From Candidatus Sumerlaeaceae bacterium (GTDB lineage: Bacteria > Sumerlaeota > Sumerlaeia > Sumerlaeales > Sumerlaeaceae), in NCBI GenBank assembly GCA_049968255.1, contig JBMFRB010000003.1, positions 192,998-256,997 of the forward strand: a stretch of 64,000 nt of DNA, in the 5' to 3' direction. The translations under genes were made by a program, and so were the position numbers. Shown in pieces: positions 2,603 through 41,467 of this stretch. Below the pieces are notes generated by a model that saw only the letters and a program-made list of their open reading frames with translations, did not search any database and was not told the origin of the DNA. Numbering within the stretch: the first letter of the stretch is position 1; each line of letters opens with the position of its first letter.

Positions 2603-4105
2603 TCAATCCTCGAGAATGTCTTTTTCGAATTCGCCTTGGGGGGCTTGCCCTGGGGGATAATGGCCCGTGAAACAAGCGGTGCAATATTGCTGGGTGCGAG
2701 GGACCACGCGCAGGAGCCCCTCGAGGCTGAGGAAGCCCAGCGAGTCACAGCCGATGAATTTGCGTATGCTTTCAACGTCGCCGGCCGTGGCCGCAATGAG
2801 CCGTTCGCGCTTGGGCGTGTCAATGCCGAAGAAGCAGGGGTTGCGCCACGGTGGTGCACTGATGCGCACGTGAATTTCGCGCGCACCAGCGGCCCGGATG
2901 ATGTTGGCAATTTTCCGGCTGGTCGTGCCGCGCACGATCGAGTCGTCCACCACCACCACGCGTTTGCCCTCCAGCACGCTGCGCACGGCGTTGTACTTGA
3001 TGCGTGCGCCGAAATCCCGAATCGCTTGGCTTGGCTCGATAAACGTGCGTCCCACGTAATGCGAGCGAATGAGGCCCATAGCGTAGGGCATGCCTGAGCG
3101 GCGGGCATAGCCTATCGCGGCGGGAATAGAGCTGTCGGGCACCGCGATCACCACATCGGCCTCGGCGGGTTGCTCGTCGGCCAGTTGGGCGCCCAGGCGT
3201 TCGCGATATTCGTAAATGGCGTGGCCCAACGCCAGCGAATCGGGACGCGAAAAATAGATGTACTCGAAAACGCAGAAGGCACCGTCCGTGGGCGGAAATG
3301 GCCGCGACGCTCGCAGCTCGCCGTTCTTGTAAACGAGCATTTCCCCCGGTGCCAGCTCGCGCAGATATTCGGCATTCATGATATCGAGCGCGCAGGATTC
3401 GCTGGCGATGACGTAGGCGTCGCCGAGCTTGCCAAAGCACAGGGGCCGGAAACCTCGCGGATCTTTCACAGCCACAAGTTCATGGCTGTGGAGCACAAGC
3501 ATCGAGTAGGCGCCACGCAGCCGCAGGAGGCTCATGAAGAGTGCCTCCTGAAAATCCGAAGCGGCCGCCTGCGCCACGAGGTGAATAAGCACTTCGGTGT
3601 CCGTGGAGCTTTGAAAGATGGCGCCGCGTTGCTCCAGCTCCTCGCGGATGGTAGCCGCGTTCGTGATGTTGCCATTATGGGCCACGGCGATGCTTCCGCC
3701 GCGATAATTTGCTACAATGGGTTGCGCATTTTCCTCGCGGCTCGACCCCGTGGTTGAGTAGCGCACATGACCAATCGCCAACGTGCCCGGCAATTGGCGA
3801 AAGCTGTCGGCTGTGAAGACGTCGGCCACAAGCCCCGCTGCTTTGCGCACATGAAGGCGCCCTTCGTGAATCGTGGCAATTCCCGCGCTTTCCTGGCCGC
3901 GATGCTGTAGCGCGTAGAGGCCGAGATAAACGAGCTTGGCGGCCTCGGGGTGGCCACACACCGCCACGATGCCACAAGCTTCGCGTGGTTTGTCGGAAGC
4001 TAAGCCAATGATGTCCGCTCGGCCTGTCGTGACTTTTTGCGGAGTGGGCGAAAAGTTCCGCGGAGACAATTTCGTTTTCACGACAGAACAGTCTGCGGGT
4101 GACAA
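2603..4105 (-). CDS. purF: Amidophosphoribosyltransferase (start codon uncertain)
   Basis: REACGI Ntn-cysteine after a propeptide, LQHRGQESAG, GHVRYST, HNGN, PRPP loop VVVVDDSIVRGTT, Fe-S cysteines (CVFE, PCFFGID, YCTACF). Confidence 0.97.
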   Translation of the reverse strand: MSPADCSVVKTKLSPRNFSPTPQKVTTGRADIIGLASDKPREACGIVAVCGHPEAAKLVYLGLYALQHRGQESAGIATIHEGRLHVRKAAGLVADVFTADSFRQLPGTLAIGHVRYSTTGSSREENAQPIVANYRGGSIAVAHNGNITNAATIREELEQRGAIFQSSTDTEVLIHLVAQAAASDFQEALFMSLLRLRGAYSMLVLHSHELVAVKDPRGFRPLCFGKLGDAYVIASESCALDIMNAEYLRELAPGEMLVYKNGELRASRPFPPTDGAFCVFEYIYFSRPDSLALGHAIYEYRERLGAQLADEQPAEADVVIAVPDSSIPAAIGYARRSGMPYAMGLIRSHYVGRTFIEPSQAIRDFGARIKYNAVRSVLEGKRVVVVDDSIVRGTTSRKIANIIRAAGAREIHVRISAPPWRNPCFFGIDTPKRERLIAATAGDVESIRKFIGCDSLGFLSLEGLLRVVPRTQQYCTACFTGHYPPGQAPQGEFEKDILED

Positions 4106-31991: not shown

Positions 31992-34900
31992 ATGGGCATT
32001 TATTCCGAAAAGGTTATTCGCGATCTCAACGAGCAGCTCGATCCGCGGGCTGTGCTCGAACTCATCAATTATCACTCGGACAAGTTGCAAGAAAGCGGCG
32101 AGACGTTACGCGGCTTTTGTCCCATTCATCGCGAAACGGTGTTCCGGACACTCATTATTGATAAGTCCAAGCGCACGTTTCGCTGCATGTACAGCTTGTG
32201 CAAAGGCGCTGCGGGGGGCACGCTTGTCGAGCTCTACGCATTGGCGCAAGATATCCCGCTCGAAAAAGCGGTCGAGGAACTCGCAGGCCATTTCCAGATC
32301 GAAGTGCGAATGACCGCCGATCCTGAGTTTCTCGAAAAGCAGGCCGAAGTGGCGGAAAACTATCTCGAGCTCGGATTTTACGAAGACGCGGAGAAGGTCC
32401 TCCGCGAGATTGTCGAAGCAGATTCAAATTACGAACGGGCCCATCGTGGTTTGCTTGAGGTCTACAAGCATCTCGGCAACACCGAAGCTCTGGGGGAGCA
32501 TCATGGCATCCTGGCGCAGTTGCTCATCCAACGCGGTGAACGCTTAGCGGCCTATGAGCACGTCAAAGCCTGGGCCGAGTACCAGCCCGACGCACCCAAA
32601 GCGCATTATTTGTTAGCAGAATATCTTCGCGAGCAGGGCGACCTCGAAGCTGCACTCGAGGAATTCATGGCAGCGGCGGACCTCTACGCTGCGAAGGAGG
32701 ATTTTCAAGCGGCCATTGATGCGTACCGCCAAGCGGACTCCTTGCGTCTCGATGTCGTGGATGTCGTGCCCCATGTCCTGCAAATCTACGAGCAGATGGG
32801 CAAGCCCACCGAGGCCGTGGCGTTTCTCAGCGAACGTGCCGAGGCGTCGCTACTTCACGCGGATTTTGCGCGCAGCGCCCAGCTTCTGGAACAGGCACTT
32901 GAGCTCGCACCTAACGACCCTTCGCTACGCGCGCGGCTTTGCGAGATTGCCATTTTGGCCGACACGGGCGGCGACTGGTTACCACGCGTTTTCGAGTGGG
33001 CGCAGTGGTTTGTCGAGTCCGGCATGCCTGAAAAAGCCGTGCAGGTCTACGAGCGCGTGCTGGGCGCGCAACCCACAAACGAGGAAGCCGTGGAGCGGCT
33101 TCGCGCGCTTTACGCAGCAATGGGAAGGACAGAAGACGCGCTTGGGTTGCGCGTGCGCGCCGCACGCGTGGCATTAGACGCAAAAGAATTTGCGACAGCA
33201 CGCAAGGAACTCCAAGCGATCCTTGAAGAGAAACCAGATCACGCCGCTGCCCTTGAGCTGCTCGCGGAGGTGAACCTAGCGGCTGGTCACCGCAAGGAAG
33301 CTGCGGACTGCCTGGCCAGGCTGGCGCGCGTGTGTGTCGCGAACCGCGATTTTTCTAAAGCGGTTTCGCAGATGGAGCGCGTTCTTAGCCTGGTGCCGGA
33401 CGATCCCCGCTTCTTGCTCGATCGCGCGGAAATTCTGGAAAACTGGGCAAGCACAGGCAACGTCCGCGCGCGCCAGCAGGCAGTAGAGGCATTTGAAGCG
33501 CTCGGCGACCGTTATGCGCAGACAGATCCGCAAAAAGCGTGCGACATGTATCGGCGCTCCGAGGCTTGCGCTCCACCATCAGCGCAATTACTGCTGAAGC
33601 AGGCACGCTGCCAGGCAAAGCTGAGGGCTTTCGATGCGGCGCGCGAATATCTCCAGCGCGCTTGCGACGAACTTGTCGCGGTAGGACAGCCAGACGTCGC
33701 AGTCGAAGCAGCACGCGAAATCGCGGCAATGGCCCCGCACGATCATGGCCTCCAGCGTTATCTCATCGAGCTGCTTGAAGTGATCGGCCGCATTCCTGAA
33801 GCCGTCGAGGTGGCTATGCTGCAAGCGGACGCGGCCGCTCAACGAGCGGAAAAGGAGCGTGTGTTCGAGTACCTCAATTATGCACTCGCTCTGGACCCGG
33901 ATCATATACCCGCCATTGAGGCTCTTGCGCTCCACTATCACGGCACAGGCGATATCGCCAGCTACTGCGACGTCTTACTGCGTCTGGCGAATGCGAACGA
34001 GCAGCGCGGCAATATCACAGGGGCCGTGGCTGCTTTGGAACGGGTGGTGGATGAGCGTCCCGAAGATGTGATGGCGCTGGGACGTCTGGCCAATCTGCAC
34101 CTCAACCTTGGAAACGCCGCGAAGTCCCGCGCTTATCGGCTAGAATTGGCACAAATTCACCATCGGCGCGGAGCTCTGGAATCCGAGCGCGAGATACTGC
34201 GGGCGCTGCTGGAGGAGGATCCAGAGGAGGAAAATGTTCTGGCGGCCCTCATCGATTGCGAGTTTGGCCTGGGCAATCGCGAGCAAGCCTGTGCGCGTGC
34301 GGTCGAGCTGGCTCGCTTACAAATGAAGCGCGGTTTTGCAGCTCAGGCGCGTACCACGCTCGAGAAGGCGATCGCGAAAGAGCCCGATGATCTCGGCGTG
34401 AATCGCCTGCTCTTTGAACTAGTGCGCCAACTCGGCAGCGCGCAGGAAACCGTCGAACGCGGCCTCCACCTTGTCGAGCTACTTCAGCTTTACGAGCAGT
34501 TGGACGACGCAGTCGCTGTTTTCGAGCAAACGACGGAGGCTGATCCAAACAACTTCGAGTTGTTTCGCAAGTATGTCGCGTTTTTGCGCGAGATTGGGCG
34601 CACAGAGGAAACGCTTGAAAAGCTCTTTGCCATCGCGCGGCGGCTGCGTGCAAGCGGCCAATTTGAAGAAGCAGAAAAAGCACTGCTCGAGATTGAGCAG
34701 TCACGTCCGCTGGACATACCCGAGCTCGAAGAAGCTCTCTCGCTCTACGAGCAGTGGGGCAAGCCCGAGCAGTTTGCACAGCGTGCCATTGAGTTAGCGC
34801 GCACCTATGAAACGAGTGGCCAGGACAAAAAGACGTTGACTCTTCTGCGGCGCGCACTCAAGGTGACGAATGGTCATCCGGAGGTGCGACGCGAACTTGC

Positions 34901-37900
34901 GGAAGCTTATGCGCGGCAGGGGCGTCCGGCTGATGCGGTGCGCGAGCTTGTGCAACTGGCCGACGCCTTTGTTGGGGCTGGCAAGCGCGACGACGAACTT
35001 GAAACACTACGGCGCGCTGTGGCACTGGTGCCGACGGAACGCCAAGTGCGGTTGCGCCTAGTGAATGCTCTCATTGAGAGAGGCGATCGTGAAGCGGCGG
35101 TCCTCCAGCTCGAGGATCTCGCAGCCGCACTCATGACGAGCAAAGACTATGAGAACGCGCTCGAAGTTCTCAACCGGATCATCGAAGAATTTCCCTCGCG
35201 CCTTGGCGCACGACGCATGCGGGCAGAGGTCTACTCCGCATTGGGCCAGAACAAGGCTGCGCAAGAGGATCTCAATGTCTTTTATGTGAAAAGTTTGCTC
35301 CGCCAGGCGGATGACTATCACACGAAAAACGATTTCACACGCGAGGCTGCTACCCTTCGCGAGGCTCTAAATATTATTCCATCAGACGAAGAACTCCTGC
35401 GTCGCATTCGCTCAGTAGAGTTTGAGGCGGGCGAACTCGATCGGGCGTGCTCAACGACGCTCGAATTAGCTAAGCTTTTGACCTGTCAGAATCGTCCCGA
35501 TGATGCGCTGGAACTGCTGCGCGAAACGCACACGCGGGTGCCAGACAACCTTGTCGTTGCTGAGCAGTTGTTCGAAACGCTTGCAGCGAGGCGTTTGAAC
35601 GAGGAAGCCGCGATGCTGGGAGAGACGCTTGCCGAACTCTACCGTGCCGCTGGCGAGAGCGGCAAAGCCCTCGCTGCGTTCAGTAGGGCTGTGGATCTTG
35701 CCTCGGATAGCGAGCAGGCGCGCCTGCGCTTCGCCCAGTTCCTCGAGCGCGCCGGTGAAACCGCCCAAGCGGTGGCGACATATTTGGCCTTGGCACGGCA
35801 AGCCATTGAACGAAGCGATTTGAGTTTGGCTCAAGTGCACTACGAGCAAGCTTTGCGTATCGACCCATCGTGCGTGCCTGCGCATGAGGGAATGGCCGAA
35901 GTGGCGGCACGTCGCGGCAATCACCCAGAGCAAGCGGTGTGGCTACAAAAACTTGCCGAGATTTGGGTCGGCCAAAAGGCCACCGAAGAAGCCATCGACG
36001 CTTTGCGTCGCGCAATTTACGCAGACCCCAGGCGAATAGATCTGCGGCAGCATCTCATTGAGCTGCTGGAGAAAGCACAACGGCCAGCCGATGCTGTGGC
36101 AGAGCTTCATGCGCTGGCCGATGTGCTGACACAGGAAGGCCGCCAGGCCGAAGCGCTCGCGGCCGAAGAACGAGCTGTAGCCTTGTGCCCAAAAGATCCG
36201 AAGTCGGCTCGGCGTCTGGCGGAAATGCTTATCATGCTCAACGAAGTCGAGCGTGGTGTGAATGAGTTCGAACGGCTCAGCGGCCTGTATGCGGAGCTCG
36301 GCGAGTATCCGCAGGCGCTAGCTGTGCTCGAGGAAGCACAAACGCTTGCGCCGGCCCGCCTAAGCGTGCGCCGATTGAAAGCCGAGATCTACGAGCGTAT
36401 GGGCGAGACCGCCCAGGCTGAAGAGGAACGTCGCCAGTTCGAAGTGGCCAAATCGCTGCAGGAGGCAGAAGTCGCTCGCGAGCGCAACGACTTCAAAGCT
36501 GAGAAGCGGGCGCTGCGCAAGGCACTCGAGGTGGCCCCTCAGGATGAAGGCGTGTGGCTTTTGCTCATTCGTTGTCATCGCGACCTCGGGGATACTCAGG
36601 CCGAGGTGGATGCGTATCTAAAATTGGCGGAAGTGCAGCGTGAGAAACACGGGCTCGAGAAGGCTATGGCCACACTCGAACAGGCGTATGCCCAACAGCC
36701 GAATGAAGAGCGCCTTGTGCAGCGCCTGTTCGAGTTAGCGCGCGAGCGTCGCGACGACGTCGCCGTGCGCCGATATGGCGAGCGCCTCATCGAGCTAGCA
36801 CAGAACAGGACGGACGCAGTCGAGCGCACCATCACGGTGTACGATGAGCTTCTGAGTTACGCTCCGCTGGATGCTGATCTCTATTTGGAAGCGGCTGATC
36901 ATTGTGCTCGTGTGGCGCGTCCGGCCGAAGCGCTAGAGCGACTTCATCGGGGCGCGGACCTGTTCGCAGAGGCTGAGCGTTGGGCTGATGCCGAGCGGCT
37001 TCTGCTGCGCACCCTCGAGATGAACCCCAAATCCACCGAAAGCCTTGCGCGATTGGTGCGTCTTTATGAGCGCGTGGGACGTACGGATGAATTCGAGCGG
37101 CGGTTACTGGAACTGGCCAAAGCTTACGACGAAAACGGCGAGCGTCCCCATGCCATCGAGACCGTGCGCCGCCTCACACTCGTCTCTCCAGACAATGTCG
37201 AGGCGCGCCGGTACTTGGTACGTTTACTCGCTGCTGCGGAACAAAAACATGCAGCCATCGAGGAACAGCTCGCGCTAGTTTTCCTTCTTCGCCAGCAGGG
37301 AGCGCTTTCGGACGCCGTGGAGGCAGCACGCGATGCCGTGGCTATGAGCGAAGGCAGCGACCGTGCAAGGCGAGCTCTGGCCGAGTGCTTGTTGGCCGCT
37401 GGAAATACCGATGCAGCAAACGCAGAACTGGAGGATCTCGCAAAATCATGCGTCGAGCGAGGTGACCTGCAGGAGGCGTTGCAAGTGCTCGACGAAATCA
37501 TTGAGCGCACCCCCCAGCGCATGAGCACTCGTGTCCTGCGTGCCGAAGTTTACGTGAAGCTCGGTCAGGCCGAACGGGCGCTCGAAGAGTATCGTCAGAT
37601 ATCAACCGCAGTAGCGGCTGGAGCCATGACCTCAGTGGCCGCACCGAGTGCACCCGCCATGCCCTCGCTGCAGATTGTGTCCGAATACGATTTCGAGCAT
37701 TTCGTTGTGGGGGCTAACAATAATTTCGCCTATGCGACCGCCCTTGCCGTGGCACGTGCCCCAGCGCAAGCCTATAATCCGCTGTTCATTTATAGCGATG
37801 TGGGACTCGGCAAAACGCATCTTGTGAACGCCATCGCCAACCACATTCTTCGCGAGAACCCAAACGTCCGCATCATCTACACAAATTCGGAGGACTTTAC

Positions 37901-38450
37901 GGCTGAAGTCGTCGAGGCTATCCAGACCAACACAATCAACCAATTCCGCGCGAAGTACAAATCCGTGGATCTCCTGATTGTGGACGACGTCCAGTTCCTT
38001 GCGGGCAAGGAACGCGCGCAGGAAGAATTCTTTCACATCTTCAATGCACTCTTCCAAGCAAAAAAACAAATCGTCATCACAAGCGATCGGCCGCCGAAGG
38101 ACATAGCAAGGCTCGAAAACAGGTTACTTTCGCGCTTTGGCGCTGGGGTGATTGTGGACATTGCCCCGCCTGATCTCGAAACGCGCATCGCCATTCTCAA
38201 CCGAGAAATTGAGCGCGGCGAAGTTGATATTCCCGACGCGGTCGTCCAACTCATCGCCGAAACCATTGATACCAATGTGCGCGAGCTCAAAGGCGCGTTG
38301 AACCAAGTCATGGCGATGCACACGATCCAAGGCAAAGAGATCAACACAGCAAACGTTCGGCAGATGTTGGAGTCACTTTACGCGCGTCCAACTGCCGTGG
38401 AGAAGCAGCCTCCGCAAGAATCGGCGAAAGATAAAAAGAAAAAAAGTTAG
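31992..38450 (+). CDS. Giant fusion protein: CHC2 zinc-binding domain (DnaG-type) + TPR-like solenoid + DnaA-type AAA+ domain without domain IV
   Basis: One uninterrupted 2152-aa ORF with an AGGA RBS. aa ~1-105: GFCPIH...FRCMYSLC..GG...AVEELA. aa ~110-1875: helical repeats. aa ~1899-2130: YDFEHFVVG.NN..A, YNPLFIYSDVGLGKTHL, DLLIVDDVQF, QEEFFHIFN, SDRPP, RLLSRF, PDLETRIAIL, NVRELKGAL. Confidence 0.93.
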   Translation: MGIYSEKVIRDLNEQLDPRAVLELINYHSDKLQESGETLRGFCPIHRETVFRTLIIDKSKRTFRCMYSLCKGAAGGTLVELYALAQDIPLEKAVEELAGHFQIEVRMTADPEFLEKQAEVAENYLELGFYEDAEKVLREIVEADSNYERAHRGLLEVYKHLGNTEALGEHHGILAQLLIQRGERLAAYEHVKAWAEYQPDAPKAHYLLAEYLREQGDLEAALEEFMAAADLYAAKEDFQAAIDAYRQADSLRLDVVDVVPHVLQIYEQMGKPTEAVAFLSERAEASLLHADFARSAQLLEQALELAPNDPSLRARLCEIAILADTGGDWLPRVFEWAQWFVESGMPEKAVQVYERVLGAQPTNEEAVERLRALYAAMGRTEDALGLRVRAARVALDAKEFATARKELQAILEEKPDHAAALELLAEVNLAAGHRKEAADCLARLARVCVANRDFSKAVSQMERVLSLVPDDPRFLLDRAEILENWASTGNVRARQQAVEAFEALGDRYAQTDPQKACDMYRRSEACAPPSAQLLLKQARCQAKLRAFDAAREYLQRACDELVAVGQPDVAVEAAREIAAMAPHDHGLQRYLIELLEVIGRIPEAVEVAMLQADAAAQRAEKERVFEYLNYALALDPDHIPAIEALALHYHGTGDIASYCDVLLRLANANEQRGNITGAVAALERVVDERPEDVMALGRLANLHLNLGNAAKSRAYRLELAQIHHRRGALESEREILRALLEEDPEEENVLAALIDCEFGLGNREQACARAVELARLQMKRGFAAQARTTLEKAIAKEPDDLGVNRLLFELVRQLGSAQETVERGLHLVELLQLYEQLDDAVAVFEQTTEADPNNFELFRKYVAFLREIGRTEETLEKLFAIARRLRASGQFEEAEKALLEIEQSRPLDIPELEEALSLYEQWGKPEQFAQRAIELARTYETSGQDKKTLTLLRRALKVTNGHPEVRRELAEAYARQGRPADAVRELVQLADAFVGAGKRDDELETLRRAVALVPTERQVRLRLVNALIERGDREAAVLQLEDLAAALMTSKDYENALEVLNRIIEEFPSRLGARRMRAEVYSALGQNKAAQEDLNVFYVKSLLRQADDYHTKNDFTREAATLREALNIIPSDEELLRRIRSVEFEAGELDRACSTTLELAKLLTCQNRPDDALELLRETHTRVPDNLVVAEQLFETLAARRLNEEAAMLGETLAELYRAAGESGKALAAFSRAVDLASDSEQARLRFAQFLERAGETAQAVATYLALARQAIERSDLSLAQVHYEQALRIDPSCVPAHEGMAEVAARRGNHPEQAVWLQKLAEIWVGQKATEEAIDALRRAIYADPRRIDLRQHLIELLEKAQRPADAVAELHALADVLTQEGRQAEALAAEERAVALCPKDPKSARRLAEMLIMLNEVERGVNEFERLSGLYAELGEYPQALAVLEEAQTLAPARLSVRRLKAEIYERMGETAQAEEERRQFEVAKSLQEAEVARERNDFKAEKRALRKALEVAPQDEGVWLLLIRCHRDLGDTQAEVDAYLKLAEVQREKHGLEKAMATLEQAYAQQPNEERLVQRLFELARERRDDVAVRRYGERLIELAQNRTDAVERTITVYDELLSYAPLDADLYLEAADHCARVARPAEALERLHRGADLFAEAERWADAERLLLRTLEMNPKSTESLARLVRLYERVGRTDEFERRLLELAKAYDENGERPHAIETVRRLTLVSPDNVEARRYLVRLLAAAEQKHAAIEEQLALVFLLRQQGALSDAVEAARDAVAMSEGSDRARRALAECLLAAGNTDAANAELEDLAKSCVERGDLQEALQVLDEIIERTPQRMSTRVLRAEVYVKLGQAERALEEYRQISTAVAAGAMTSVAAPSAPAMPSLQIVSEYDFEHFVVGANNNFAYATALAVARAPAQAYNPLFIYSDVGLGKTHLVNAIANHILRENPNVRIIYTNSEDFTAEVVEAIQTNTINQFRAKYKSVDLLIVDDVQFLAGKERAQEEFFHIFNALFQAKKQIVITSDRPPKDIARLENRLLSRFGAGVIVDIAPPDLETRIAILNREIERGEVDIPDAVVQLIAETIDTNVRELKGALNQVMAMHTIQGKEINTANVRQMLESLYARPTAVEKQPPQESAKDKKKKS
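34135..37610 (+). repeat. Intragenic protein-level super-repeat: three copies of ~386 aa, each made of six 54-aa units plus one ~62-aa unit (boundaries approximate)
   Basis: Turn positions at aa 744, 798, 852, 906, 960 (Asn), 1014 and 1068 are spaced 54 apart. Equivalent positions recur at 744/1130/1516 and 1068/1454/1841. Confidence 0.8.
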
Positions 38451-39661: not shown

Positions 39662-41467
39662 CTATTTGTTCGCTGGCAGGACCCTCTCGCTGCCCACGCG
39701 CGGCGCACTCGTAAGAGAATCTTCGGGTGGCTTAAAGATGTAAATCTTGGGACCAGCGCGTCGCCAAGGCTTGGGCGCAAATTCAGCGAGCAGCGGCAGC
39801 GTTTTGATCTCGCGCAGAAATTTCACTGTCTCCGATGCCTCGGGTGGGTCTAGCTCAAGGTAAAGCAACGTTTGCTCGGGCACGATGACCGCCGAGTATT
39901 TGCCAGCATAGTCGCGCAACGATAACGAAAATGGCTGAGGCAGGAACTGACGCGTGCCATCGCTCAGACGATGAAAATGCCATTTGACGTCGAGAAAATC
40001 GGCATCGAACTGCGGTCTGGTCTCAAACGCGGCGTACTTCATGGCACGCTCGAAGTAGCCACCCTCGCGGCCGTGACGTCGCGCCTCTTGCAGAAGATTC
40101 GCGAATGTGCGGGGCGTGAAGGCAAGCGTCGGGTAGTAACGATAATAAAACGGCGAGACGATGAGCAAAGGCTTATCGGTAAAACGCGAGCCCGACGCCG
40201 CCTGTTGCTCGATCCAACGCGCAGCCGCAATCCGTGTGTCGCCCCCAAGATATTCGGCGGTCCGTCGTGCAACACGCACAAAATTCTGCACGAGTCCCAC
40301 GGCGAGAAAGAATAAAATCGCCAAGCGGACCAACCGCTTCTGCTGCTCGTGGGCGCGCACGGTCATTTCGTGGCCCAGCATCCACGCGGTAATCGGGGTG
40401 ACCAGAATGGCGTATTGATAATCCAGGTGGCCAGCTAGCAGAAGGGTTGCCAGATAGAGGGCAACAGGAAGTGCAATCAACGCGCGCAGGCGGCGCGCCC
40501 GCTCAAGAAAAAGCCCAGCGCCAAGCAGCACGCTTACCCAAGCCAAGCCAAGCTCGGCATCCCAGATCTGCGTGAAAAAGCGCCAACCGTATTTGTCGGC
40601 ATAGTAAAGCGAAGCCAAGCCGTGACCCACTTCGCTGACGATGTCCGACGAAAGCGTGGCACGGAAGAAGCGTACCGGCTCAAGAATGACCGCAGGTGTG
40701 CCGATCACAAATCCCGCTGCGAGCGCAAGCAGGCCAGAGAAGCTCATGTGCCGAAGCACCTTGCGGTCACCGGCTGCTGCGTCCCGATAGCTCAATTCCC
40801 ACGCAAGCAAAGGAAAGAGCGCTACCCAAAAGCAGTTGTACTTCGTCGAGACGGCAAGCCCTGCAGCGAAGGCCGAACCTCTTAGCCACCGCGCGACGCG
40901 GTGCCACTGCGCTTTTCTGGCCGCAACCAGCAGTTCTAGCGCTGCAGCAAACGCCACAAAGCTCCAGAATTGCGCTACAACATCTTCCTTAGCGATGTGA
41001 CTGTACTTCACAGAGCTCGAGGCGAACGCCACGAGCGCAATCGCAACCAACTGGGCCCCTAGTCCCTGACGCCGCAAACTCCATAGCAGGAAACTCAGCA
41101 AGCCGACTGCAAACCCCGCCGTCATAAAGCGGGCCGTTGCATAGAAGAGAAACGGCGCAAGAAAGAAGCGCCGTTCAAAATCTTCGCGCGTTGTGCCCAG
41201 AAAAAGGTGCTCAACGGCGTACTGCGCACCGTAGGCTGTGGCGAGAATTTCGGCGTAATGTGTGGGCTTGTTGGCGTGGATAGGCAACAAATCGCCCGTC
41301 GCAAATTTCAGAGCGCGCGACACGGCGTCAATTTCATCCGAGGAAAAAAGTCCCCCGCTTGGCGCATCGTATGCAACGGGAACAATGCGGAAAAGCGTTG
41401 CGAAGAATAACAGTGCCAGAAGGACACGCCGAATCCTCAGCAAAGTTTTTTGACCGCGCTCATTCAT
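39662..41467 (-). CDS. GT-C fold membrane glycosyltransferase (ArnT/PMT, family 39-like)
   Basis: DE dipeptide after TM1 (SSDE), SHIAKED, GLAVSTKY, about 10-12 TM segments, soluble C-terminus. Confidence 0.8.
   Translation of the reverse strand: MNERGQKTLLRIRRVLLALLFFATLFRIVPVAYDAPSGGLFSSDEIDAVSRALKFATGDLLPIHANKPTHYAEILATAYGAQYAVEHLFLGTTREDFERRFFLAPFLFYATARFMTAGFAVGLLSFLLWSLRRQGLGAQLVAIALVAFASSSVKYSHIAKEDVVAQFWSFVAFAAALELLVAARKAQWHRVARWLRGSAFAAGLAVSTKYNCFWVALFPLLAWELSYRDAAAGDRKVLRHMSFSGLLALAAGFVIGTPAVILEPVRFFRATLSSDIVSEVGHGLASLYYADKYGWRFFTQIWDAELGLAWVSVLLGAGLFLERARRLRALIALPVALYLATLLLAGHLDYQYAILVTPITAWMLGHEMTVRAHEQQKRLVRLAILFFLAVGLVQNFVRVARRTAEYLGGDTRIAAARWIEQQAASGSRFTDKPLLIVSPFYYRYYPTLAFTPRTFANLLQEARRHGREGGYFERAMKYAAFETRPQFDADFLDVKWHFHRLSDGTRQFLPQPFSLSLRDYAGKYSAVIVPEQTLLYLELDPPEASETVKFLREIKTLPLLAEFAPKPWRRAGPKIYIFKPPEDSLTSAPRVGSERVLPANK

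Follow-up and report, generated by a model that had tools for sequence, protein, structure and literature searches.

The gene described here raises the question of what a bacterium might do with a second copy of the ATPase domain of its replication initiator when that copy forms the end of a giant protein that begins with a primase-like zinc ribbon. The gene is a single open reading frame (ORF) of 2152 amino acids (aa) within a 64,000-nucleotide (nt) stretch, referred to below as the window, of contig JBMFRB010000003.1 from a Candidatus Sumerlaeaceae bacterium with a genome of 3.1 Mb in 31 contigs. The product is laid out as a zinc-ribbon head, a tetratricopeptide repeat (TPR) array, a flexible linker and a DnaA domain III, in that order. 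We conclude that the gene is real and intact, that it encodes a giant protein of the uncultured phylum Sumerlaeota, and that this protein, called the fusion below, is an AAA+ paralogue of the DnaA family in which known domains are combined in a new architecture. An earlier note, written from the sequence alone, had read the 2152-aa ORF as three parts, and this reading is borne out by the ORF call and by Pfam and NCBIfam scans. Its component claims also hold, namely a DnaG zinc-binding domain with a CPIH...C-x4-C pattern (profile and fold matches), the lack of a TOPRIM core behind it (Pfam places TPR there), about 1750 aa of helical repeats (TPR over ~1760 aa by Pfam) and a DnaA domain III without domain IV (Pfam and the coverage of TIGR00362).

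The C-terminal module carries this conclusion. Bac_DnaA (PF00308) matches residues 1898-2056 with 222.8 bits against a cut-off of 23. The NCBIfam equivalog model of DnaA, TIGR00362, gives a partial match of 343.4 bits, just under its cut-off of 343.9, and leaves domains I and IV uncovered because the match is limited to model positions 61-340 of 437. Neither DnaA_N (PF11638, domain I) nor the DnaA-box helix-turn-helix of domain IV (PF08299) is found among the best 25 of the 33 Pfam families matching the protein (E <= 0.01), and the protein ends 17 residues past domain III. The best match in the PDB is Bacillus subtilis DnaA (8bv3/8btg, ~271 bits), to which the module aligns ungapped over 232-240 residues and thus retains the initiator-specific insert; the DnaAs of Thermotoga and Aquifex score 218 and 175 bits. 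We numbered domain III positions on E. coli DnaA, with functional labels from the literature, and counted conservation in 37 family members. The equivalents of K178, T179, D235, D236, D269, R281, R285 and R334 are invariant in 37/37; the key residues of the window protein are K1941/T1942 (Walker A), D1998/D1999 (Walker B), D2032 (sensor I), R2044 and R2048 (box VII) and R2097 (sensor II). At the presumed contacts to single-stranded DNA (ssDNA), V211 is represented by I or V in every member, K243 by K in 36/37 and R245 by R in 33/37. Judged by its residues, the module is a full AAA+ domain of DnaA type, and none of the positions checked for nucleotide binding, hydrolysis and the arginine finger varies.

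The module exists alongside the regular initiator. Genome profile searches confirmed the expectation that separate dnaA and dnaG genes lie elsewhere in the genome: the canonical DnaA (L001:1090-2529) has 479 aa and matches DnaA_N (49.9 bits), Bac_DnaA and Bac_DnaA_C (PF08299, 99.8 bits), and the true DnaG is a 617-aa open frame with a PF01807 match of 127.8 bits. The fusion ATPase is 42% identical over 271 aa to the DnaA of its own genome, and across 11 genomes its identity to same-genome DnaA is 40-49%. We built a maximum-likelihood tree from 66 domain III sequences, 37 from fusions and 29 others (14 Sumerlaeota DnaAs, Bacillota-like DnaAs, one Caldatribacteria DnaA, E. coli DnaA, three MshEN-DnaA proteins and P0131), after dropping E. 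coli Hda and the DnaC-like loader of the same genome for their very long branches, P0125 as a fragment and L040 as truncated. A branch with 99% support in the Shimodaira-Hasegawa-like approximate likelihood ratio test (SH-aLRT) separates the 37 fusion domains from the 29 DnaA-type domains, in a narrow sample of DnaAs from outside the phylum (Bacillota-like, one Caldatribacteria and E. coli). When the fusions are forced to group with the Sumerlaeota DnaAs, the tree loses 22 log-likelihood units and is not rejected (approximately unbiased test, p = 0.14); therefore, an origin of the fusion ATPase by duplication at the base of the phylum is possible. Roots placed with Hda or DnaC, as in the comparison with Hda suggested at the outset, are unreliable, with branch lengths of 5-10. 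Over 55 genome pairs, mean pairwise identity is 58.4% for the fusion ATPase and 60.3% for canonical DnaA, and in 17 of these pairs the fusion shows the higher conservation. By this measure, the ATPases of the fusion and of canonical DnaA evolve about equally slowly. The idea that the fusion ATPase stands closer to the DnaA of Bacillota than to that of Sumerlaeota was rejected: it is true only against the rather divergent DnaA of this genome, and the average over 11 genomes is reversed (fusions 48.5% vs canonical DnaAs 55.0%).

At the other end of the protein, the head is, as modelled, a DnaG-type zinc ribbon for which the sequence match is weak and the fold match clear. Residues 6-107 match Pfam Zn_ribbon_DnaG (PF01807) over profile positions 3-95 of 98, with a score of 22.1 bits by hmmscan, which is below the cut-off of 24.9, and of 28.2 bits in a six-frame genome search, which is above it. 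The putative zinc ligands are C43-x2-H46 and C65-x4-C70. Across 36 aligned N-termini of the family, drawn from genome loci, C43 and P44 never vary (36/36), and H46, C65 and C70 are retained in at least 90%. A profile of this alignment found only 2au3 (E 0.0056) and 1d0q (E 0.015) in the PDB, both of them DnaG zinc-binding domains and each covered for the most part by the match. The same alignment gave an AlphaFold2 model with a mean predicted local distance difference test score of 84.5. Foldseek pairs the model with 1d0q (E 4.9e-5, template modelling score 0.73 on the target, root-mean-square deviation 2.6 A, 102 columns) and with 2au3 (E 2.1e-4); the remaining matches have E values of at least 0.56, with phage T4 primase chains being the next after DnaG. 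Additionally, the clusters nearest to the head in a protein atlas are CHC2 zinc-finger proteins. The head shares with the DnaG structures the whole-domain fold and the CHC2-type ligand pattern, whereas their second cysteine pair is 2 residues closer than the C-x4-C of the head. DnaG primase continues with Toprim/RNA-polymerase and helicase-binding domains, while in Sumerlaeota the head begins TPR proteins instead: among the best 25 of the 33 Pfam families there is no helicase-binding domain or Toprim/RNA-polymerase core after the head, since TPR matches start at about residue 102. Three of the 36 head sequences (L009, L029 and L031), all from one lineage, family f15, are without H46, C65 and C70. 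The f15 heads, at L009:5095-5469, L029:583-957 and L031:4226-4600 and also in P0075, read CPLC... and miss the second cysteine pair, so the zinc site has probably been lost in this lineage, with the remainder of the domain retained.

The head is not confined to the fusion. A search of 1.84 billion representative proteins with the head profile returned 878 matches at E <= 0.001 and 265 at E <= 1e-10, in length classes of ~1360 aa (the fusions), ~2600, ~2950-3120, ~440-650 and ~140-240 aa. The two giants that were scanned, P0078 and P0269, have TPR-type Pfam families only and no ATPase. The genome of the window itself encodes, on contig C1, a 2603-aa protein of head and TPR in which TPR runs to the end (L062:1365-9176, minus strand) and, on contig C10, a 481-aa head protein (L060:358-1803, minus strand) with short TPR, a Pro/Gln-rich stretch and C-terminal ~80 aa that match no family. 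Sumerlaeota genomes carry 1-5 heads each, and in family f16 the fusion is the sole head-bearing protein in 7/7 genomes. Sumerlaeota thus have a TPR protein family that shares the zinc ribbon as its head, with the DnaA module carried by a single member. Because TPR-only paralogues have it too, the zinc ribbon marks the family rather than a primase module as such. This weakens the initial picture of two replication modules held apart by a scaffold: both domains are present, but one of them also starts proteins that consist otherwise of TPR.

Between the two ends, Pfam TPR matches cover residues ~102-1870 (TPR_19 E 4.5e-92, TPR_14 4e-75, TPR_16 1.7e-55), and the array is ~790 aa longer than that of a typical 1360-aa family member. 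The 1365-aa homologue P0013 can be aligned colinearly with residues 1-1094 of the window protein and also with its residues 873-2132, and P0010 (1749 aa) aligns to the window protein with an offset of ~330-380 aa. Additional TPR blocks therefore account for the difference between the 1365-, 1749- and 2152-aa classes, and these alignments indicate that the window's family gained such blocks relative to the ~1360-aa form. Identity to four full-length homologues is 69-84% in the head, 44-66% in the TPR region, 29-54% in the linker and 85-91% in the AAA+ domain; both ends are thus far better conserved than the TPR middle. The Lys-rich tail that had been noted at the C-terminus is real and limited to the nearest relatives, P0002 and P0007, being missing in most members. 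The start of the ORF agrees with homologue starts in the alignment, and the guanine-plus-cytosine fraction across it (0.587-0.592) is typical for the window (0.51-0.60). The coordinates of these features are collected in Table 1.

Table 1. Features of the fusion gene in the window, and the DnaC/IstB-like loader locus of the same genome
Feature	Residues	Coordinates	Strand	Basis or remark
Whole ORF (P0001)	2152 aa	31992..38450	+	ATG start, stop codon included, no internal stop
DnaG-type zinc-binding domain (head)	1-108	31992..32315	+	Pfam, profile and fold match
TPR solenoid	~110-1870	32319..37601	+	TPR_19, TPR_14, TPR_16 matches
Ala/Pro/Ser-rich linker	1871-1894	37602..37673	+	read in sequence; 29-54% identity
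DnaA domain III (AAA+ base and lid)	1895-2135	37674..38396	+	PF00308, TIGR00362, PDB 8bv3/8btg
P-loop start	S1935-D1936	37794-37799		
Lys-rich C-terminal tail	2136-2152	38397..38447	+	read in sequence
DnaC/IstB-like loader locus, two overlapping ORFs		L003:627-1301 and L003:1258-1953	+	

The architecture recurs throughout the phylum. A search of 5.8 billion proteins gave 105 matches, which include full-length proteins of 2132-2151 aa at 50-69% identity and many further ones of ~1354-1410 aa. Those TPR and DnaA matches that are named by taxon are all from Sumerlaeota except P0009 (Hydrogenedentota) and P0060 (labelled 'bacterium'). Among 75 species genomes of Sumerlaeota, PF00308 matches in 75/75, and nearly all of them have a canonical DnaA frame of ~450-540 aa and, besides it, a second DnaA ATPase domain in a long frame. 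The head profile matches in 72/75, with no match in G014, G058 and G064 (91%, 66% and 92% complete). When the two tables are read together, head and ATPase lie within one open frame, usually of ~1360 aa, in 54/75 genomes, and about a dozen more genomes have them on separate contigs or frames of fragmented assemblies. Of two genomes from the same genus as the window, G056 has an intact 2160-aa frame, and G055 has an orthologue that is split into frames of 536 aa and ~1707 aa (L063:4072-5682 and L063:5480-6499). The split in G055 is due to an extra 199 nt after gene position ~1420 that partly repeats the preceding 80 nt; this disruption could be genuine or could be an assembly error in the repeat. 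One DNA sequencing run (X1, a hot-spring metagenome with 0.32 of the sampled words) yielded 14 low-depth pieces, the eight listed being 190-431 nt long, and none of the 14 spanned a domain junction. No RNA run was found among the sequencing runs listed for the sampled words.

What might such a protein do? DnaA domain III assembles head-to-tail in an ATP-dependent manner by means of its arginine finger, and its initiator-specific insert binds ssDNA. By analogy, we tentatively favor the reading that the fusion acts on DnaA-type filaments at unwound DNA, by joining, nucleating or capping them, most probably beside DnaA at the origin, and we would give this somewhat less than an even chance of being correct. 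Of the roles proposed in the earlier note, that of a regulator co-polymerising with DnaA thus stays the preferred guess. The module would bind ATP and stack head-to-tail through its arginine finger, and it would grip ssDNA in the way that DnaA does. As there is no domain IV, DnaA-box reading would be unavailable to the module, which would be unable to find the origin by itself. On unwound origin DNA it may join, nucleate or cap the DnaA filament and would bring along a TPR platform of 1100-1750 aa that could recruit or exclude other factors, and the zinc-ribbon head would additionally contact DNA or a partner. The effect on initiation could be either positive or negative. The DnaA-filament model is the most economical one because DnaA is the cell's only other DnaA-type ATPase.

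Several observations weigh against the filament model. Contact with DnaA and a role at the origin are drawn from sequence and analogy, and we hold them with modest confidence. Scored against 25 canonical DnaAs, the fusion module has signature differences: E337K and R342Q in 37/37 members, A153T in 36/37, G186A in 35/37 and T253I in 32/37. Its P-loop begins with S/A-D instead of the canonical G-G (first position in 35/37, second, G173D, in 34/37). These fixed differences could alter the partner or the nucleotide behavior of the module. Two of the genomes with no head match, G014 and G064, are at least 90% complete. The genes around the fusion are housekeeping genes with no link to replication and, in a comparison of 11 loci from 9 taxonomic families, no neighbor was common to more than 3 loci; those that are common (to at most 3) are QRPTase or have no Pfam match. 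Additionally, the ATPase-less head and TPR paralogues imply that head plus scaffold can have a role without need of a DnaA module.

The last two points lead to the best surviving alternative, which we regard as possible though on the unlikely side. The fusion might be one of a Sumerlaeota-specific set of zinc-ribbon-headed TPR proteins that acts as a DNA-anchored scaffold outside initiation control. Its DnaA-type module would then be only a DNA clamp, switched by ATP, that holds the scaffold on the chromosome for organization, segregation, repair or another purpose. The 2603-aa and 481-aa proteins of the same genome, the heads in 72/75 genomes, the several length classes among the 878 profile matches and the lack of replication genes around the fusion gene are all consistent with this. 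However, the ATPase retains each DnaA-specific position that was checked, including those that a DnaA-type filament requires on ssDNA, and it evolves as slowly as that of DnaA. The f16 genomes, which have the fusion alone, also indicate that the fusion is independent of the paralogues.

It is improbable that the fusion is instead a negative regulator comparable to Hda, a domain III-only protein whose arginine finger triggers ATP hydrolysis on DnaA. The fusion does resemble Hda in having no domain IV, its arginine finger is invariant, and its own genome is without an Hda homologue, as a PF00308 search of that genome gave three matches in total and these are the fusion, the canonical DnaA and a DnaC/IstB-like loader. 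The module, however, matches Hda (5x06) with only 40.5 bits as compared to ~271 bits for DnaA, and the Hda model TIGR03420 gives 93.3 bits against a cut-off of 194.8. Furthermore, the fusion's own Walker A and B motifs are fully retained, and the stretch ahead of the AAA+ domain is the ordinary start of a DnaA domain III, with no clamp-binding peptide apparent on reading the linker by eye, no motif scan having been made.

DnaI, a helicase loader, has a zinc-binding N-terminal domain and an AAA+ domain of the DnaA/DnaC clade. The fusion has a zinc domain followed by an initiator-clade AAA+ domain in this same order, so that it could be viewed as an analogue of DnaI with the TPR array as a giant insert. 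IstB_IS21 (PF01695) also matches it with 32.9 bits, above the cut-off of 24.1. We consider this view highly improbable given that Bac_DnaA scores 222.8 bits while the PDB loaders 2w58 and 2qgz score ~30 bits, that NCBIfam loader models are far under their cut-offs, and that the head has the fold of a primase zinc-binding domain. The genome also already has a loader, the DnaC/IstB-like protein of 231 aa with a Cys-rich N-terminus on contig C1 (L003, plus strand). A 224-aa ORF without a Pfam match overlaps and precedes this loader gene and might encode a DnaD/DnaB-like co-loader.

The surroundings of the fusion gene bear on a further proposal, one of the options in the earlier note, that the protein could be a decoy or sensor for phage. 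On the upstream side are genes for an M23 peptidase, UppS, CdsA, a BioB-like radical SAM enzyme and a DMT transporter. On the downstream side, the opposite strand encodes a radical SAM protein and a 601-aa protein without a Pfam match, and genes for a GT4 glycosyltransferase and a hydantoinase come next. No mobile-element gene, dnaN or gyrB occurs among these neighbors, and the annotation thus agrees with the non-origin context free of mobile genes that had been described. The 601-aa ORF (window 39662-41467, minus strand) is conserved beside the radical SAM gene downstream of the fusion in G066, a genome of the same family (L006:8874-10706). PADLOC returned mad8 alone, with 17.5 bits and an E value of 5.9e-4, which is at chance level, and no defense signature. 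Housekeeping, non-conserved neighbors and the empty PADLOC result argue for a core chromosomal gene and not a defense-island or mobile one; the gene is core and phylum-wide and apparently vertically inherited. An anti-phage role is consequently disfavored and has a very slight probability. The layout of a large repeat array with a nucleoside triphosphatase (NTPase) does occur in some defense proteins, which is a general resemblance only, and in the signal transduction ATPases with numerous domains (STAND) that serve in defense, the ATPase generally comes first, whereas the repeats come ahead of the ATPase here. Finally, an assembly chimera or a dead gene, against which the earlier note had advised a check, is refuted for the copy in the window with next to no doubt, despite the broken gene of G055, by the full-length homologues from independent contigs and sources, by the intact single frames in 54/75 genomes including G056, and by the strong conservation of both ends.

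Comparison with known relatives places the fusion within the DnaA family and apart from each described type. With DnaA it shares the complete AAA+ domain III with its Walker, sensor, box VII arginine and ssDNA-contact positions; it differs in lacking domains I, II and IV and a dnaN context, in forming a separate clade with signature substitutions, and in having ~1870 aa of other domains ahead of the ATPase. Hda and HdaA likewise have a DnaA-family AAA+ domain with an arginine finger and no DNA-box-binding domain, while the fusion is ~10 times longer and much closer to DnaA. From the DnaI/DnaC loaders, whose domain order is given above, it differs by an ATPase of DnaA type rather than loader type and by its primase-like head fold. 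Full-text literature searches found the combination of zinc ribbon, TPR and DnaA ATPase described nowhere, in agreement with the earlier note, whose author knew of no described protein of such architecture. The main text of a genomic study of Sumerlaeota (PMC8092238) contains none of the terms 'tetratricopeptide', 'TPR', 'primase' and 'initiator', and its supplementary tables might list the family. Database entries name members 'DnaA/Hda family protein' or 'tetratricopeptide repeat protein' and, mistakenly, 'chromosomal replication initiator protein DnaA'; with names that are generic or wrong, genome annotation could mistake the fusion for the initiator.

Two further groups of proteins also use domain III as a cassette, with different partner domains. 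The MshEN-DnaA metagenome proteins P0080, P0082, P0084 and P0352-P0356 (1867-1999 aa) have MshEN and then a DnaA ATPase near the N-terminus, plus a second DnaA ATPase match; P0080 has AAA-type matches near residues 1620-1720. The three of them in our tree group with canonical DnaAs and not with the TPR fusions, and these three also carry S at the first P-loop glycine position. The second group, ~630-680 aa in length (P0358, P0363-P0372, P0403 and others), is named 'DnaA/Hda family' or 'ATP-binding', with a few members labelled Gemmatimonadaceae; precomputed Pfam lists show its members with a DnaA ATPase domain and without domain IV. We know of no characterization of either group. With such long DnaA-ATPase proteins also present in metagenomes, the use of domain III as a cassette may extend beyond the Sumerlaeota family.

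In bacteria, origin opening is driven by DnaA domain III. The Sumerlaeota appear to possess, phylum-wide, a second domain III that looks catalytically intact and evolves slowly, is without an origin reader and is mounted on a giant scaffold. This suggests either an unrecognized partner of DnaA in initiation or a reuse elsewhere of the initiator's ATP-switched ssDNA filament, and either option would widen the DnaA-family repertoire past DnaA, Hda and the loaders. A broader view, which we regard as doubtful, is that these bacteria have a lineage-specific machine of zinc-ribbon-headed TPR giants, one of which would carry an active DnaA-type filament module that works on unwound DNA with or against DnaA. 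If this were true, a copy of the initiator's ssDNA-filament engine would be tied to a scaffold with a length of tens of nanometers, and the family would represent a previously unrecognized layer of replication-initiation control or chromosome handling in bacteria. Although Sumerlaeota are known mainly from metagenomes, the domain modules of the fusion are small enough for direct biochemistry.

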